Part shown: piece after piece, positions 996 to 9,182 of the stretch
How positions within the stretch are numbered: position 1 is the stretch's first letter
Layout: every line of letters begins with the position of its first letter
Source of the DNA: a virus
Taxonomy: Duplodnaviria > Heunggongvirae > Uroviricota > Caudoviricetes
DNA length: 9,182 bases
Direction: 5' to 3' (one strand)
Virus record (IMG/VR): IMGVR_UViG_2651869781_000012
Notes under the pieces: model-generated
Database searches by the model: none
Seen by the model: the letters and a program-made list of their open reading frames with translations, nothing else
Told to the model about the DNA's origin: nothing
Made by a program: the position numbers and the translations under genes

Positions 996-1379
996 TCAAC
1001 CAATCAACTTATAGCGACCATCCCGTGCATTGCGACGTACACGCTCAATCTTGAGGCATAGCGCCGCATCTGGCTTTTTTGGGACAGGTACGCGGCAATA
1101 TTCAGAAGCTCGAGGAATATTGTTTATCCAGTCGATCACTTCACTTAAATACCAGGCCTTACGCCCTTCCGTAACCTGTACGCGCTCGGGGAACTCTCCG
1201 CGAGCCTCAAGGTTTAGCAATGTGCGACGGCTAAGGGTAGTAAGTTCCATCACCTGATTCATATCAACAAGGCGTTCACTTAAACGCATTTTGTCAGCAA
1301 TAGCCTTTAATTCCTCTACTGCTGGATCCGGATACATCATTTCGGCAATTGGCTTAAGGTCATTGTAATGATTCTGCAT
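996..1379 (-). CDS. AlpA-family HTH DNA-binding protein (127 aa), function unknown
   Basis: Residues about 40-87 (LTTLSRRTLLNLEARGEFPERVQVTEGRKAWYLSEVIDWI) fit the AlpA/excisionase-type HTH pattern. SD AGGGGGA lies 4 nt upstream of ATG 1379. It starts 11 bp after the D-like stop and ends about 55 bp from cosN. Confidence 0.7.
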   Translation of the reverse strand: MQNHYNDLKPIAEMMYPDPAVEELKAIADKMRLSERLVDMNQVMELTTLSRRTLLNLEARGEFPERVQVTEGRKAWYLSEVIDWINNIPRASEYCRVPVPKKPDAALCLKIERVRRNARDGRYKLIG

Positions 1380-3951: not shown

Positions 3952-5769
3952 TTAATTTTTGCTATCGTCATTAGTGACCGATACACATGATGGCATCCAG
4001 TCTTCTGATTCCTCCGTCAGTGTCACGTTTGAACGCAAACCGTGCTTCGTTTTCCGTTTCATATACTCCCTGCCATATTCCGCCATTGCCCCCGGCATAT
4101 CTTTACCGAAGCGCGTCAGTGTTACAGGTTTACCAAACCCATGTGCCTTCATATAAGCCAGATAGGCATGATAGAGATACCTGCGCGGGCTGAATGGCAC
4201 AATTTCAGCATTACCCACTAACAGGCCATCACACATTACCGACGCCATGAGATAGCCGCAGAAGTCCACCAGCGAATCACCTTCACGCTTTATCGCGAGT
4301 GCTTCTTCTGATTTCTGCTGCTCATATAAAAGGCGTCTGGCTTCGTCCTGGTCAGCAAACCGTGTAAGCAGATGACGAATCACTACCGCCAGCTCACCTT
4401 CTATTTTTTCCGCCAGCATTGAATCGCGTTCGTTCTCCGGTACAACTTCCGAAAAATTGAATATCACCCGACGGCGCGAGATCCCCCCACTGCGGTCACT
4501 GAATGACATAGCGTTATTGTTAACCGCCAGCACTACTGCCGGGATACGCGTTGAATATGGGGCTTTATGTTTCGGGTCGATTGCCACCTTGTCACCGCCT
4601 GTAATAGCCTTAATTCCCGCCCCATCACCAGCGTAGCGGGTCATATCCGGCATGATAATCAGCGAAAAGCCAACCACTAACGCGCGTTCCCTTGCATCTT
4701 CCAGCGCCTTCATGCTCGCTGATACTGTATTAGCCTTACCCGCCAGCATGGTGCAAATCTCCGCCATCACGCTTTTACCACTTCCCCCTGGACCTGTTAC
4801 CTCAATGAATAACTGCCAGTCGTACCGGTTCGCCAGCACCATGAATAATGCAGCCAGTACGCGATCCGCCTTGCGGTCATTCTCAGCCACCGAACGGCGT
4901 AACCACTTCCAGAAATTCGGCGCATGTGTTGCCAGCGTTTCCCCCTCTGCTGGTGGGCTGAAAGGTAATTCACTGGCAATTAACAACCAGTCGTTTTTGT
5001 TATGCTCCCGAAAATTACCTGTTCTGGTATCAAATACCCCGTTACTGAATCCAATCAGGTTACGGGCTGTATTCCCCATTACAGGCAAACTTAACTTCAT
5101 GGTATCGACCGCCGATTTAATGGCGTTCTGCGAATAGCTGATCTCCGCATCAATGAAAATCTGCGCCATAGCACGCTGTAACTCTTTATCCTGAACCGGC
5201 TCCCATACAACGCCGTTGTAATGGTGAACAGTGTCAGAGTCGGCATGAATCGCCAGTTCACCGCCATAATGTGCCAGGAGAACTTCGCCGCGTTGACTTG
5301 CTCCCATCTGGTTAAGCGCCAGTGATGAAGCGTTATCGTCTTTTACCCGCTCTTTTTTCTTTACAGGCAGTTCAACTACCTTTTTCTTTTCCGCCAGCTC
5401 TCCCCGCTCACGTTCCAGATATTCGCGCCAGTTCTCCCGTTTCTGGCTGTGCATTCCTTCAGGGTAATAATCAGCATCCCTGACACCTGCCGCTGCCAGT
5501 TTCTGCCCGATGGTATTAACAAGCCCCGGACGCAATAACCCCGCCTGGTAGAGACGCACGCGATAGCGTCCGTCCGGTACGATTTGCAGGTTGTCCAGTT
5601 CGGCAAGTTGTTGCTCTCCAAGCCAGACAGGTGGCACGTTATCGCCAGCCAGTCGCCCGTCCTGTTCCTGCCACTGCTTCGCATGTGCCCACGCATCACT
5701 ACCCGCAAAAATGATGACTTCCGTCATTTTGTCACGCGGCTGGTGTTTTAAATTTGGCGCTTTTTTCAT
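3952..5769 (-). CDS. Phage/plasmid primase-helicase, P4 alpha-like (SF3 helicase domain)
   Basis: About 605 aa. Walker A GPGGSGKS lies in the context FIEVTGPGGSGKSVMAEI, typical of P4-family primase C-terminal/D5-type helicase domains. ATG 5769 has GGAGAGAG upstream and overlaps the upstream gene stop (ATGA). The six-frame track start at 5784 is a GTG. Confidence 0.9.
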   Translation of the reverse strand: MKKAPNLKHQPRDKMTEVIIFAGSDAWAHAKQWQEQDGRLAGDNVPPVWLGEQQLAELDNLQIVPDGRYRVRLYQAGLLRPGLVNTIGQKLAAAGVRDADYYPEGMHSQKRENWREYLERERGELAEKKKVVELPVKKKERVKDDNASSLALNQMGASQRGEVLLAHYGGELAIHADSDTVHHYNGVVWEPVQDKELQRAMAQIFIDAEISYSQNAIKSAVDTMKLSLPVMGNTARNLIGFSNGVFDTRTGNFREHNKNDWLLIASELPFSPPAEGETLATHAPNFWKWLRRSVAENDRKADRVLAALFMVLANRYDWQLFIEVTGPGGSGKSVMAEICTMLAGKANTVSASMKALEDARERALVVGFSLIIMPDMTRYAGDGAGIKAITGGDKVAIDPKHKAPYSTRIPAVVLAVNNNAMSFSDRSGGISRRRVIFNFSEVVPENERDSMLAEKIEGELAVVIRHLLTRFADQDEARRLLYEQQKSEEALAIKREGDSLVDFCGYLMASVMCDGLLVGNAEIVPFSPRRYLYHAYLAYMKAHGFGKPVTLTRFGKDMPGAMAEYGREYMKRKTKHGLRSNVTLTEESEDWMPSCVSVTNDDSKN

Positions 5770-6065
5770 TTCTGCTCTCTCCACGCGGCAATCATGTTTT
5801 TCAGTTCCTGTAGTTTTTTATCCACATCCACACGTGACACATGGTTATTTCTGGAAGTCGGGATTTCCCGCCGGAATCTGCAAATAAAGATCTCCACGTT
5901 CAGCGAACTAAGAAATGAATATCCATCACGGATAAAATAAACACGGTCAAACATCAGTTCTTTTACCGTTACTCTGTTACCGTTCTTATCCAGATAAATA
6001 GCGCCGGGGATAATTTTGTGGTGTGCATAACCGCTGGCAGTCAAGCCAGATAAATATGTTCTCAT
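5766..6065 (-). CDS. Hypothetical protein (99 aa), operon member upstream of the primase
   Basis: ATG 6065 with GGGGA upstream; its stop overlaps the primase start. No recognisable motif. Confidence 0.6.
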   Translation of the reverse strand: MRTYLSGLTASGYAHHKIIPGAIYLDKNGNRVTVKELMFDRVYFIRDGYSFLSSLNVEIFICRFRREIPTSRNNHVSRVDVDKKLQELKNMIAAWREQK

Positions 6066-6071
6066 GATTAT

Positions 6072-6392
6072 TTATCCCCGATTTGAATCAGTATTCGCTT
6101 TCTTTATGGCATTTAATGCATCTGTGGCATTTTCAATGGTGCACCGTAACGAAATATCAAACTGCCCAAGCATTGCCAGTAACAAACCGATATTACCCAT
6201 ATCAATGCGCATGGCCTTTTCGTCATAGTCCTCATTTTCTGACGCATGCCACATCAGGCTACCAATTGACGCAATACCCATTGATATATTGTCAGTAGCC
6301 CCATCCGCAGCGGAATAAACCTTTTTAGCAATATCATGCTCACAGTTAAAATGCGGATTAATCAGGTACTGGTAACTGGTCATGTCAGGCAT
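6072..6392 (-). CDS. Hypothetical protein (106 aa)
   Basis: ATG 6392 is preceded by AGGGGG at 6 nt spacing and overlaps the upstream ORF stop by 8 nt. No recognisable motif. Confidence 0.6.
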   Translation of the reverse strand: MPDMTSYQYLINPHFNCEHDIAKKVYSAADGATDNISMGIASIGSLMWHASENEDYDEKAMRIDMGNIGLLLAMLGQFDISLRCTIENATDALNAIKKANTDSNRG

Positions 6393-6588
6393 GGAACACC
6401 CCCTGACGAATACGGGCAGTAAATACCATCACGCAGCCATCAGGAGATTGCTGGCGAGCTTCCTGTTCGCTGGTGGCCTCAATGTGAATCACGCGCGGTT
6501 GTGCGGTGCTCAGGGCGATAAAACGCCAGATGTATTTATTCAGGTTGTGCGAGTCCCGCCCTTGCGGGTGTGTGGTATGATTTAACAT
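6385..6588 (-). CDS. Hypothetical protein (67 aa), first gene of the primase operon
   Basis: ATG 6588 is preceded by GAGGT at 4 nt spacing. This is the C-terminal 67 codons of the 306-aa six-frame ORF, whose upstream part overlaps the plus-strand genes and promoter region and is probably not coding. Confidence 0.5.
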   Translation of the reverse strand: MLNHTTHPQGRDSHNLNKYIWRFIALSTAQPRVIHIEATSEQEARQQSPDGCVMVFTARIRQGVFHA

Positions 6589-6673
6589 AGCTACCTCGAT
6601 ACGCTTTCTATCGTTGGTGGTTAGAAGCCCTGCGAGTGGTAACGACACTTGCGGGGCTTTGCATTTATGCACC

Positions 6674-6757
6674 TTGACAACCTCAAGGTGTGGCCCACTA
6701 CATTCTTTAGGTGTGGCCCACGTCAAGAGTTTTATTTGTGCTTTTTCTGTGTATACT
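6674..6757 (+). promoter_or_regulatory. Divergent promoter/operator region with two copies of GGTGTGGCCCAC
   Basis: TTGACA at 6674-6679. Direct repeats GGTGTGGCCCAC at 6687-6698 and 6710-6721, each containing the near-palindrome GTGGCCCAC. TATACT at 6752-6757 lies about 30 bp upstream of the RHH gene ATG. The region sits between divergently oriented genes at 6588 (-) and 6788 (+). Confidence 0.4.
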
Positions 6758-6787
6758 GTCCCCCACCAATCCAACAGAGGAATAGAA

Positions 6788-6967
6788 ATGGCAACGGGTA
6801 CAACAAACGCAAAATCACAAGCTCTAAAGGCTCGTGTACCACACGAAATAGTAAACGCCATGGAATCAGTGAAAGAATCAGGCGAAAGCACATCACAATT
6901 CATCATTGCGTCAATGCAAGGCGAGATCAAACGCCGCCAGCGACGCAAAGCCAAGGAGTCAGAATAA
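6788..6967 (+). CDS. Ribbon-helix-helix (CopG/Arc-like) DNA-binding protein, 59 aa
   Basis: AGAGG at 6776-6780 precedes ATG 6788. The sequence KSQALKARVPHEIVNAMESVKESGESTSQFIIASMQGEIKRRQRR fits a beta-strand plus two helices RHH layout. Transcribed divergently from the primase operon. Confidence 0.6.
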   Translation: MATGTTNAKSQALKARVPHEIVNAMESVKESGESTSQFIIASMQGEIKRRQRRKAKESE

Positions 6968-7024
6968 TCACTATCAGCGCCGTGGTGTGAGTAACTACGG
7001 CGCATTGCTATGCAGGTGCTTACC

Positions 7025-7204
7025 ATGAACGATAAAGAGTTAAAAAAAACACCACCACAAACACTGAAAGGACAGCGCAAAAAGATAGCGCATGAGCATG
7101 AATCAGAAAGATTCGCCCCCTGTTCTTTTGCTCTTGAGAAATTCCTTAAGGAGCACAAGAAAAAGCTATCATTGCAAACCTGGGAACGAACCGAATCTGA
7201 CTGA
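7025..7204 (+). CDS. Hypothetical small lysine-rich protein (59 aa); coding status uncertain
   Basis: ATG 7025 is preceded by AGGTG (7014-7018). It lies between the RHH gene and the plus-strand terminator. Highly charged, no recognisable motif. An alternative ATG is at 7010. Confidence 0.3.
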   Translation: MNDKELKKTPPQTLKGQRKKIAHEHESERFAPCSFALEKFLKEHKKKLSLQTWERTESD

Positions 7205-7268
7205 TCAAATTGCCCACCAGCCAGCAAATCGCTATGATGTTCGGGCTTATGTTTAGTGTTTTCCCATT

Positions 7269-7297
7269 GGCGACCGCCCCCGGTCGCCTTTGTTTTA
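7269..7297 (+). terminator. Rho-independent terminator
   Basis: Stem GGCGACCG(7269-7276), loop CCCC, stem CGGTCGCC(7281-7288), then TTTGTTTT(7289-7296). It lies between convergent plus-strand genes and the alpA stop at 7316. Confidence 0.6.
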
Positions 7298-7315
7298 TAT
7301 GTCATATGCTCCCCT

Positions 7316-7525
7316 TTACGCTGCCTTACCTGAATTAATGCGATCCCGGCTTTTAACCCATTCCATAACCTCGGACAGCAGCCAACCTACAGAACGCCCC
7401 CCCAGATTAAGACGTGACGGAAAGCATCCTTTTTTCTCCAGTTCATAGCGTGTAGTGCGACACACTCCAGTTAACTTACGACATTCATCCTCACGGATTA
7501 CGCGATCTTCATTTATTTCACGCAT
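7316..7525 (-). CDS. alpA: AlpA-family transcriptional regulator
   Basis: 69 aa. LTGVCRTTRYELEKKGCFPSRLNLGGRSVGWLLSEVMEWV matches the AlpA HTH pattern. Same orientation as the integrase, with an AT-rich upstream region. Confidence 0.85.
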   Translation of the reverse strand: MREINEDRVIREDECRKLTGVCRTTRYELEKKGCFPSRLNLGGRSVGWLLSEVMEWVKSRDRINSGKAA

Positions 7526-7943
7526 ACAAAAACCTACATAAAAATTACGTATATAAACTTTTCTCTTAGCTGTAGATATATGAGACCGGATATTACTTAG
7601 ATTCTTTTTTCACCTCTTAAATTAAAAACACAACCTTGCTAAAGGCTTTGTTCGCTAAGGTTCGTAGAAGCTCGTTAGTGTTTAAAATCGTGTCACGAGT
7701 TTTTAAGCGACGCAACAAAAAATGTCGTCATTTGGCATTACGCTTGAATTATCTCATTAAAAACAAATAGATAAACCATCAAGTGTTGGAACAATCAAGA
7801 AACAGAGAATAAAAACTCAGAAGAAGACATTCCAATTTTTTGATGGTTAACATATATAAAGCGAAGATATTTGCAGATATTTTCCGATATTCTACGATTT
7901 ATTCACGGCTGTAATCTCTTAAAGAAAAAACAGCCGTAATTTG

Positions 7944-9182
7944 TCAAGAATTTTGGGTGTAAATTCGCGGGGCCATAACAACGATTTTTTCATCATTGTT
8001 CTGGAGAAGCTCGAGACGGTCTACCCATAGATTAAGAGCATCACGTTTTGCATCAAGATAACGGGAGTGATTATAGACTCGTTGCATCCCCGGCATCTGG
8101 TGGGCGGTAAGCTGCTCGACAATATGCGGATCCACGCCTAAATCGTTCAGCATGGTTGTAAATGTGTGCCGGATGTCATGCAACGACCAAGGGGCTTGAT
8201 TAATGCGTCTGTGTGCCGTTCTTCCGTACTCTGATACGGATGATTGCCCTTTCAGTTCTCCAAGCAATAAGCCCGTGTGCCTGTTCTTCTCCACCAGCTT
8301 CGTGACGAACGGCAAAATGCTTTCCGGTATTGGCCTGAATATGGCGACCTTCGTTTTGCTGTGCTCCTTCGGTACTGTCCAGAGCATTTCTTTAAAATCC
8401 CACTCCTGCACCTCAGAGCGCCTTAGCTCGGTGGTACGGCATCCAAAAACAATCAGGAGGCGAATTAGGGCGCTGTAGTACGGCGGGAATATTTTGTCAT
8501 CCAGAGCGCGGAGTAATTCCCCAAGCTCCTTGTTTGTTAGTACGCGCTCGCTCACTTCTGCTTTTTTTCCCACATCACCGACAACCATATCATCAAGAAC
8601 GTTGCTGATTGCGTATCGTCGTTTTCGGCAGTACTTAAGCGCCTGTTTGCATACCTGTAGCAAAAATCCGGCAGATACCGGGCTTCGCTTTGCCATCTGG
8701 TCAAAACATGTCAACCAGTGCCGTAGCTCGCATTTTTCCAACGGCATAGCGCCAATCTGGCTGATTATGTGTTTATTGATCCGGCTTTTCAGTGATTCGT
8801 AGTCAGTGCGCTTTTCCTTTGCATACGATTCAAGCCAGTAAGTAAGCGCTTCCTTAACTGTCACGGGGGCTAACGCATCCTGTACAGCACGATTAAGCTC
8901 ATAGCGCGGATTTTTCCCCTCAGCCAGCCAGGCGCGACACTGTGCTGCTTTTTCCCTGGCTGCTTTCAGGCTCAGATCGGGATAATTGCCCAGTCTCAGA
9001 CGTTCCGGTGATACCTGCCTACCAGTTCCGGCCCTGTAAGTGAAATACCAGGTTAACAGGCCGCTGGTGGAATGTCTTACGCTAAGATTGCCACCGTCAT
9101 TAAAAAAGGCGTTTTTTGTGGTTGGTGATCCGCTTAATTTTCGTAAAAGAGTGTCGCTAAGTCTATGAATTGCGCTGCTCAT
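7944..9182 (-). CDS. int: Tyrosine recombinase / integrase, P4-type
   Basis: 412 aa. The N-terminal arm-binding-like region (DGGNLSVRHSTSGLLTWYFTYR...LGNYPDLSLKAAREKA) and C-terminal catalytic motifs (HDIRHTFTT; ...QRVYNHSRY) fit the family. The ATG is the last three bases of the window, so an upstream start cannot be excluded. Confidence 0.9.
   Translation of the reverse strand: MSSAIHRLSDTLLRKLSGSPTTKNAFFNDGGNLSVRHSTSGLLTWYFTYRAGTGRQVSPERLRLGNYPDLSLKAAREKAAQCRAWLAEGKNPRYELNRAVQDALAPVTVKEALTYWLESYAKEKRTDYESLKSRINKHIISQIGAMPLEKCELRHWLTCFDQMAKRSPVSAGFLLQVCKQALKYCRKRRYAISNVLDDMVVGDVGKKAEVSERVLTNKELGELLRALDDKIFPPYYSALIRLLIVFGCRTTELRRSEVQEWDFKEMLWTVPKEHSKTKVAIFRPIPESILPFVTKLVEKNRHTGLLLGELKGQSSVSEYGRTAHRRINQAPWSLHDIRHTFTTMLNDLGVDPHIVEQLTAHQMPGMQRVYNHSRYLDAKRDALNLWVDRLELLQNNDEKIVVMAPRIYTQNS

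Follow-up and report, generated by a model that had tools for sequence, protein, structure and literature searches.

A candidate ribbon-helix-helix repressor and its three co-varying operator sites in a Gram-negative PICI

Ribbon-helix-helix (RHH) repressors with operators embedded in promoters are a well-known kind of regulator, and the closest working analogue of the locus described here appears to be the Mnt/Arc system at the ant operon of phage P22, which by our comparison is closer than the OR region of lambda. In lambda, three operators lie over the divergent promoters PR and PRM, and exchange of the immunity region defines heteroimmune groups. Immunity in P1 (c4) and P4 (CI) is conferred by antisense RNA, from an element directly upstream of an Icd-like first gene. 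Among phage satellites, the repressor genes stl of SaPIs and rpr of Gram-positive PICIs are divergent from the excision/replication operon (PMC6092414); Stl and Rpr, which are larger and of the HTH type, bind proteins of the helper phage, and their genes are co-oriented with int. For Gram-negative PICIs, the founding paper called the global repressor unclear (PMC6092414), and a later survey described the genes of these islands as mostly unidirectional (PMC10111431). Helper phages act on the Gram-negative island EcCICFT073 by switching on alpA transcription, and overexpression of AlpA alone induces this island (PMC6092414). Among open-access papers and bioRxiv, a single paper was found that names YlcI/YnfO in satellites, including capsid-forming PICIs, as an accessory "prophage-associated protein". 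Here, a divergently encoded protein of that family and the DNA sites beside its gene were analysed in an island of the EcCICFT073 type.

The island and its divergent 59-aa gene

By its gene content, the whole stretch of DNA that was analysed (the window, 9182 bp) is a Gram-negative PICI of the EcCICFT073 type. Searches with Pfam and PHROGs gave the order int, alpA, primase and then captured capsid and terminase small-subunit genes, all in one direction, and this order matches EcCICFT073. The integrase gene (7944-9182) and alpA (7316-7525; Phage_AlpA, PF05930, E = 9e-16) lie on the minus strand together with the operon, which begins with the gene for a 67-aa Icd-like protein (6385-6588; NCBIfam NF033153; ATG at 6588 with a GAGG ribosome-binding site) and continues with a 106-aa ORF, a DUF4222 gene, a D5_N/Pox_D5 primase gene (3952-5784, minus strand, Pfam), an 81-aa ORF and SSB. 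Family labels for the Icd-like protein disagree, as PHROGs assigns it to phrog_6196, "transcriptional repressor", and NCBIfam calls it "host cell division inhibitor Icd-like". Beyond SSB are genes for a lambda-E-like major capsid protein, a head-decoration protein, a second AlpA-like protein and the small terminase subunit. The second AlpA-like protein (996-1379, minus strand), a winged-helix protein of 127 aa whose gene lies among the late genes and is flanked by those for the head-decoration protein and the small terminase subunit, may have a packaging or regulatory role; when it was considered as an Rpp-type packaging factor, a PDB search matched the AlpA-family structure 8c3t alone.

The plus strand between alpA and the operon carries the 59-aa gene (6788-6967), a lysine/glutamate-rich 64-aa ORF downstream of it (7010-7204; phrog_21027) and a terminator-like hairpin. 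The hairpin (7269-7288, GGCGACCG-cccc-CGGTCGCC) is followed by TTTGTTTTAT, and the whole element (7269-7298) is the predicted terminator of the 59-aa gene's transcript. Its T-run is present on the plus strand only, and a minus-strand alpA transcript meets no U-tract, so that the terminator is predicted to be one-directional. The 64-aa ORF is restricted to E. coli relatives, where it lies inside the exchanged block described below, and is missing from most loci; it is therefore not a conserved partner of the 59-aa gene.

As the original prediction had it, a 59-aa gene is divergent from the primase operon across a gap of roughly 200 bp: the 59-aa gene starts at ATG 6788 on the plus strand and the operon at ATG 6588 on the minus strand, leaving an intergenic region of 199 bp (6589-6787). 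A ribosome-binding site, GAGGAA (6777-6782, plus strand), can be read from the sequence 5 nt before the ATG. The way in which the ORF has diverged indicates that it is a real gene. Its product is 50-98% identical among Enterobacterales homologues. In these homologues, third codon positions account for 54% of the nucleotide differences, and single-nucleotide codon changes are synonymous 2.5 times as often as non-synonymous (24159 against 9729).

An AlphaFold model of the 59-aa protein, made with 41 homologues (monomer, pLDDT 89.7), has a beta-strand at about residues 11-17 (QALKARV), a helix at 19-28, a GESTS turn and a long second helix at 35-58 that has a basic tail, which is the beta-alpha-alpha arrangement of the MetJ/Arc/CopG superfamily. 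The model supports the RHH fold that had been ascribed to the protein; Pfam does not bear it out. A Pfam scan of the 59-aa protein gave no RHH match, and its sole match, Lyase_1 (E = 0.037), was rejected as spurious. No curated RHH profile in Pfam was above threshold for the protein or its family members, and PDB searches with the 59-aa sequence and with the family profile returned nothing relevant. The sub-threshold Pfam matches of family members fall in RHH families, namely CB_ParB_C (10 of 41 members; 3e-4), Arc (0.012), RHH_5 (0.15) and PSK_trans_fac. Mnt and Arc of the P22 immI region have no detectable sequence relationship to the 59-aa protein. Furthermore, P22 has a second RHH partner and none is found here, and the target operon in P22 is that of the antirepressor, whereas here it is an Icd-like and primase operon in a phage satellite.

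The 59-aa protein belongs to the YlcI/YnfO family (NCBIfam NF041551; DUF3950), which is known from lambdoid cryptic prophages: residues 9-50 score 67.4 bits against a curated cutoff of 30, and the E. coli orthologues carry the YlcI/YnfO name in RefSeq. The family is narrow, comprising 89 representative clusters among 1.84 billion proteins, and common in E. coli, where 825 of 5426 complete genomes have relatives; a tblastn search of the 59-aa protein against 50,697 deposited phage genomes gave no match. K-12 YlcI is a very distant relative of the window protein (BLASTP E = 0.15), and its gene, in the DLP12 prophage (L060, 6252-6446), is divergent from the terminase gene nohD across cos and is not beside a replication operon. 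By eye, K-12 YlcI has an RHH-like sequence pattern. There are hints in these sequences that the whole DUF3950 family may consist of small DNA-binding regulators.

Divergent transcription from the replication operon is the feature that this locus shares with Stl and Rpr, and on that likeness the RHH protein had been proposed as a natural target for inducers encoded by helper phages. Followed to its end, the comparison would make the RHH protein a master repressor of the whole island that is induced when a helper-phage protein binds it directly, and the basic stretch EIKRRQR, in which helix B terminates and which is invariant, could be a protein interface. We regard this as unlikely. The protein has only 59 aa and no domain beyond the RHH fold in the AlphaFold model, which argues against a separate sensor domain. 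Its gene converges on alpA and int, whereas stl and rpr point in the direction of int transcription; no RHH-type site was found near the alpA promoter of the window; and the EcCICFT073 helper acts on alpA transcription, with AlpA alone being sufficient (PMC6092414). The invariance of EIKRR is partly an ascertainment artefact, because the loci were collected by a peptide pattern that includes EIKRR. Nothing here links the RHH protein to a helper protein, so that of the proposed likeness to SaPIs the divergent topology stands, and the helper-encoded inducer finds no support.

Candidate operators and promoters of the intergenic region

Everything that the original prediction described in the intergenic region is present in the sequence, and the two sites that it named are here extended to three. 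It had pointed to a TTGACA, found at 6674-6679, and to two 12-bp near-palindromic repeats, GGTGTGGCCCAC, which are located at 6687-6698 and 6710-6721, some 9 bp further right than a quick reading suggests. The two copies match exactly over 13 nt (AGGTGTGGCCCAC, 6686-6698 and 6709-6721, 23 bp from start to start). When 58 loci were compared (56 from one-genome-per-species contigs, the E. coli locus L001 and EcCICFT073, L059), the conserved unit proved to be an 11-bp element, GTG-N5-CAC, in three copies at fixed positions, of which the third had been missed. In the window, site 1 (6688-6698) and site 2 (6711-6721) are both GTGTGGCCCAC, with the core TGGCC, and this 11-mer has two exact copies in the whole 9182 bp (about 0.004 expected by chance, by our own arithmetic). 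Site 3 is CTGTCCCCCAC (6756-6766), with the degenerate core TCCCC in place of TGGCC, and ends 21 bp before the RHH ATG; all three sites are given on the plus strand. The fragment 6670-6760, which had been suggested for binding assays, would cut through site 3.

The positions of the three sites are conserved. Their distances from the RHH ATG are -32, -77 and -100 to -112 in about 55 loci, with site 2 fixed at -77 in nearly all loci and site 3 at -32 in about 55, and a search with the loose pattern xTG-N5-CAx over the 140 nt that precede the gene finds almost solely these three sites (about 55 loci). The spacing of sites 1 and 2 ranges from 20 to 36 bp across loci, and the two may be direct or inverted. 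Within one locus the N5 cores are the same or 1-2 bases apart; between loci they are completely different, and 16 operator classes can be distinguished by N5 core. Site 3 is often the most degenerate copy and always starts with CTG, as its first two bases are shared with the end of a nearly invariant -10 element, TATACT. Dissimilar from P22, in which each protein has one symmetric operator of 17-21 bp, the locus has three 11-bp GTG-N5-CAC sites 20-36 bp apart, and sites 1 and 2 are likewise too far apart to match the closely packed cooperative arrays known for Arc, CopG and omega.

A strict sigma-70 consensus scan of the intergenic region called no promoter, and the promoters described here are consensus-based candidates assigned from elements that are conserved across loci. 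The leftward operon promoter would consist of a -35 element, TTGACG (6721-6726, minus strand), whose TTGA is invariant in all loci, and a candidate -10 element, TGTAGT (6697-6702, minus strand), which matches the consensus after a spacer of 18 nt. This -10 is weak in the window (TGTAGT), TATAGT in EcCICFT073 and TAnnnT in most loci. In every locus the -35 TTGAnG adjoins site 2 on the opposite strand, and in almost every locus a TAnnnT -10 comes 16-18 nt further on. Site 2 fills the -35/-10 spacer of this promoter, taking 11 of its 17-18 bases in every locus, and site 1 overlaps or comes after the leftward -10 across loci; in the window it reaches into the -10 and into the region where the operon transcript is predicted to start (near 6688-6692, minus strand). 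The promoter of the RHH gene itself has the -10 TATACT (6752-6757, plus strand), nearly invariant across loci, and a good -35 is absent. Site 3 overlaps the last 2 nt of this -10 and covers the predicted start of the RHH transcript (6764-6766, plus strand).

A Mnt/Arc-type arrangement, in which an autoregulated RHH repressor has its operator inside overlapping divergent promoters, would agree with the consensus promoter elements and the positions of the sites in all loci, provided that transcription starts where it is predicted to. The layout is also like that of lambda OR, as there are three related operators over two divergent promoters and the weakest site is on the repressor's own promoter. 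However, lambda repressor is an HTH protein with a cleavable C-terminal domain, whereas an RHH fold is predicted here, and this locus gives no sign of neighbouring dimers that cooperate, of SOS control or of an equivalent of Cro.

The same positions bear on the possibility that the RHH protein does bind the sites, but mostly to regulate itself or as an activator. It might, for instance, activate its own promoter, which lacks a -35, by way of site 2, and have its main role elsewhere as an antitoxin-like or accessory protein. This we hold to be very unlikely. In every locus, site 2 is within the spacer of the leftward promoter, which is a classic repressing position, and there is no conserved downstream partner gene, which indicates that the RHH protein is not part of a toxin-antitoxin pair. 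The identity of an RHH antitoxin was in fact rejected on the same ground, as most loci are without a co-oriented ORF within 150 nt downstream of the gene.

The TTGACA at 6674-6679 pairs solely with TACATT, at a spacer of 19 bp. It is held within an inverted repeat, CACCTTGA-N5-TCAAGGTG (6670-6690), which has counterparts in many loci and runs into the left edge of site 1, with GGTG common to both; the left half of the TTGACA belongs to this inverted repeat, and loci with 35-bp site spacing lack the repeat. Similar TTGA...TCAA-like repeats are found in loci in which sites 1 and 2 are spaced by 20-26 bp and are absent at the 35-bp spacing. The 6670-6690 repeat could be a stem-loop at the 5' end of the operon mRNA, part of a rightward or second promoter, or a site for another protein.

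The operon leader (minus strand) is predicted to fold into three hairpins (z = -2.5): the 6670-6690 repeat, a GC-rich hairpin at 6625-6659 and a small hairpin at 6597-6613, at or just upstream of the Icd-like Shine-Dalgarno sequence. The latter two are conserved, and 7 of their 10 predicted pairs have compensatory changes among 33 loci, so that the sequences vary while the pairing is kept. A T-rich stretch comes after the 6625-6659 hairpin on the plus strand. This hairpin, which a terminator scan did not call, might be the end of a short cis-antisense RNA; such an RNA would begin at TGGTATGAT (6573-6581) and span the Icd-like ribosome-binding site. In having a candidate immunity element directly upstream of an Icd-like first gene, and structured leader hairpins as well, the locus is like P1 c4 and P4 CI, but those systems act by antisense RNA, whereas the specificity determinant here would be a protein with DNA sites. 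C4/IsrK-type RNAs have been reported in other Gram-negative PICIs (PMC10111431). When the whole window was compared with Rfam by cmscan (E <= 1), no C4/IsrK/CI-type immunity RNA was found, and the sole match was a spurious snoRNA.

Co-variation, cassette exchange and co-residence

Over the 58 loci, the N5 core changes jointly at all three sites and tracks residues 12-14 of the beta-strand. The strand QALKARV or QSLKSRV occurs with the core TGGCC, QK(L/V/I)QARA with GA(T/C/G)TC, KKLEARV with TCAGC, QMTTVRI with AAATA, QQLNARF with AATCG, KRFDVRV with TCGGA, QKMSARV with GCACC and LQ(V/L)SVRL with AACAC. Alignment column 14 is the most informative and fully determines the operator class (U = 0.79), followed by columns 12 and 13. 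As predictors of two loci having the same operator class, RHH residues 11-15 and the whole RHH protein each gave an AUC of 0.996; the Icd-like protein, whose gene is adjacent and divergent, gave 0.489 and AlpA 0.64. In 19 locus pairs the Icd-like proteins are more than 80% identical yet the operators differ, and 56 pairs share an operator class yet have Icd-like proteins that are less than 40% identical. A direct example is the window and L001, in which the Icd-like proteins are 91%, the AlpA proteins 97% and the RHH proteins 69% identical, with the cores TGGCC and GATTC respectively.

RHH proteins read DNA through the beta-strand with an alternating pattern of residues, and by analogy the DNA-facing side of the strand would here carry residues 12, 14 and 16, the last an invariant arginine. 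We propose that beta-strand residues 12 and 14, together with the N5 core, are the main determinants of operator specificity. The class information in columns 14, 12 and 13 and the AUC of residues 11-15 are indirect but strong evidence that an RHH dimer would read the repeated DNA sites with its paired beta-strands. Situated on conserved promoter elements, and co-varying over 16 classes with the beta-strand and not with the flanking proteins, the repeats behave as the RHH operators for which they were originally taken.

Identity profiles between islands demonstrate where this variation is exchanged. Between the window and L001, identity reaches 92-100% at 6051-6600 and at 7301-7800 and drops to 44-88% across 6601-7300, with the minimum on the operators. 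Between the window and EcCICFT073, compared over 6051-7800, identity is 92-100% solely at 6401-6950 and 22-50% elsewhere; the operators of EcCICFT073 are identical to those of the window, and its RHH protein (gene C_RS30120) is 98% identical. These sharply mosaic profiles indicate that the RHH gene and its operators move as one immunity-type cassette. The block that is swapped between the window and L001 also takes in the 64-aa ORF and the leader hairpin.

Because the RHH gene adjoins the operators, part of the co-variation could be plain linkage. In the extreme case the sites would be true operators that are bound by the 64-aa ORF product, AlpA, the Icd-like protein or a host protein, with the RHH gene, the nearest gene to the sites, simply travelling along; the content of the block swapped between the window and L001 would agree with this. 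We give such an explanation only a slim chance. Most loci keep the sites without the 64-aa ORF, and a single host factor would be unable to keep pace with as many as 16 cores. The identity of the Icd-like protein and of AlpA fails to predict operator class (AUC 0.49 and 0.64), and both were ruled out as the operator binder for this reason. Moreover, the top columns 14, 12 and 13 sit on the DNA-reading strand of RHH proteins. A role of the repeats in replication, as iterons, or in partition, as a centromere for an RHH protein of the ParG, omega or ParB type, is scarcely credible: the CB_ParB_C domain weakly matched by 10 of 41 family members is the RHH domain of centromere-binding ParB, but there are just three sites, each locked to a -35 or -10 element, no ParA-type ATPase was found among the window proteins with Pfam or PHROGs, and the origin is reported to be downstream of pri in these islands (PMC10111431).

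If operator classes are immunity groups, the islands that share a genome are of interest. In nine genomes with two to four islands each (L003/L025, L010/L038, L012/L037/L039/L048, L019/L034/L043, L022/L035, L024/L049, L026/L040, L030/L032 and L044/L047), none of the 16 co-resident pairs shares an operator class, compared with 4.5 pairs expected (within-genus permutation, P = 0.001). The finding that no class is shared within a genome fits heteroimmunity; competition for the same integration site is an alternative, or could account for part of the pattern.

A proposed repressor and immunity circuit

From the architecture, the co-variation and the mosaicism that can be read in the sequences, together with the predicted fold, we infer that the 59-aa RHH protein probably binds the three sites and represses the operon promoter, as an autoregulated repressor/immunity cassette. 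RHH dimers would contact the three 11-bp GTG-N5-CAC operators with paired beta-strands that enter the major groove, and the leftward sigma-70 promoter would drive the early operon of the Icd-like, DUF4222 and primase genes. As site 1 overlaps the -10 of this promoter and site 2 fills its -35/-10 spacer, their occupancy would block RNA polymerase and silence the replication genes. The weaker site 3, which abuts the -10 of the repressor's own promoter, would provide negative autoregulation. The gene and its operators would together form an exchangeable immunity cassette, and its classes may have diversified by paired changes in two beta-strand residues and in the 5-bp operator core.

The RHH cassette is separate from AlpA, in agreement with the original suggestion of a control layer besides AlpA, and the arrangement of the two suggests a route of derepression. 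Since the T-run of the hairpin at 7269-7288 is on the plus strand only, the alpA transcript could read on into the RHH gene and the operon. Transcription from the alpA promoter, driven by AlpA and unterminated, would then run antisense through the RHH gene into the operon, and on this geometry it would be carried past the repressed promoter and would interfere with repressor synthesis. The induction of EcCICFT073 by overexpressed AlpA alone (PMC6092414) implies that AlpA can override the RHH repressor, whatever its action. The full proposal, that the RHH/three-operator cassette is the missing repressor and immunity determinant of Gram-negative and capsid-forming PICIs, with at least 16 heteroimmune classes and with AlpA acting by antisense read-through instead of at the operon promoter, is put forward tentatively.

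No description of the RHH cassette of EcCICFT073 was found in open-access papers and bioRxiv, and it may be described elsewhere. The small EcCICFT073 genes of the cassette bear late-numbered RefSeq locus tags, which suggests that they were added after the original annotation. What appears to be new is that a likely function can be given to a YlcI/YnfO-family protein and that Gram-negative PICIs would have a repressor/operator cassette, a reading that the comparison of loci strongly supports.

If immunity with antisense read-through operates as proposed, loss of the RHH gene in EcCICFT073 would lead to expression of the replication operon that is independent of AlpA and of a helper, and a resident island would keep out only those newcomers that belong to its own class. 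If the RHH protein is the repressor of the operon, the 16 pairs of protein and operator would represent a natural set of small orthogonal repressors that may be useful in engineering PICI-based delivery vehicles. The protein would then also supply a missing part of the PICI induction circuit, and the published "activation" by AlpA would be open to reinterpretation. Furthermore, the YlcI/YnfO/DUF3950 family would gain a function, and these satellites would gain a scheme for immunity typing.
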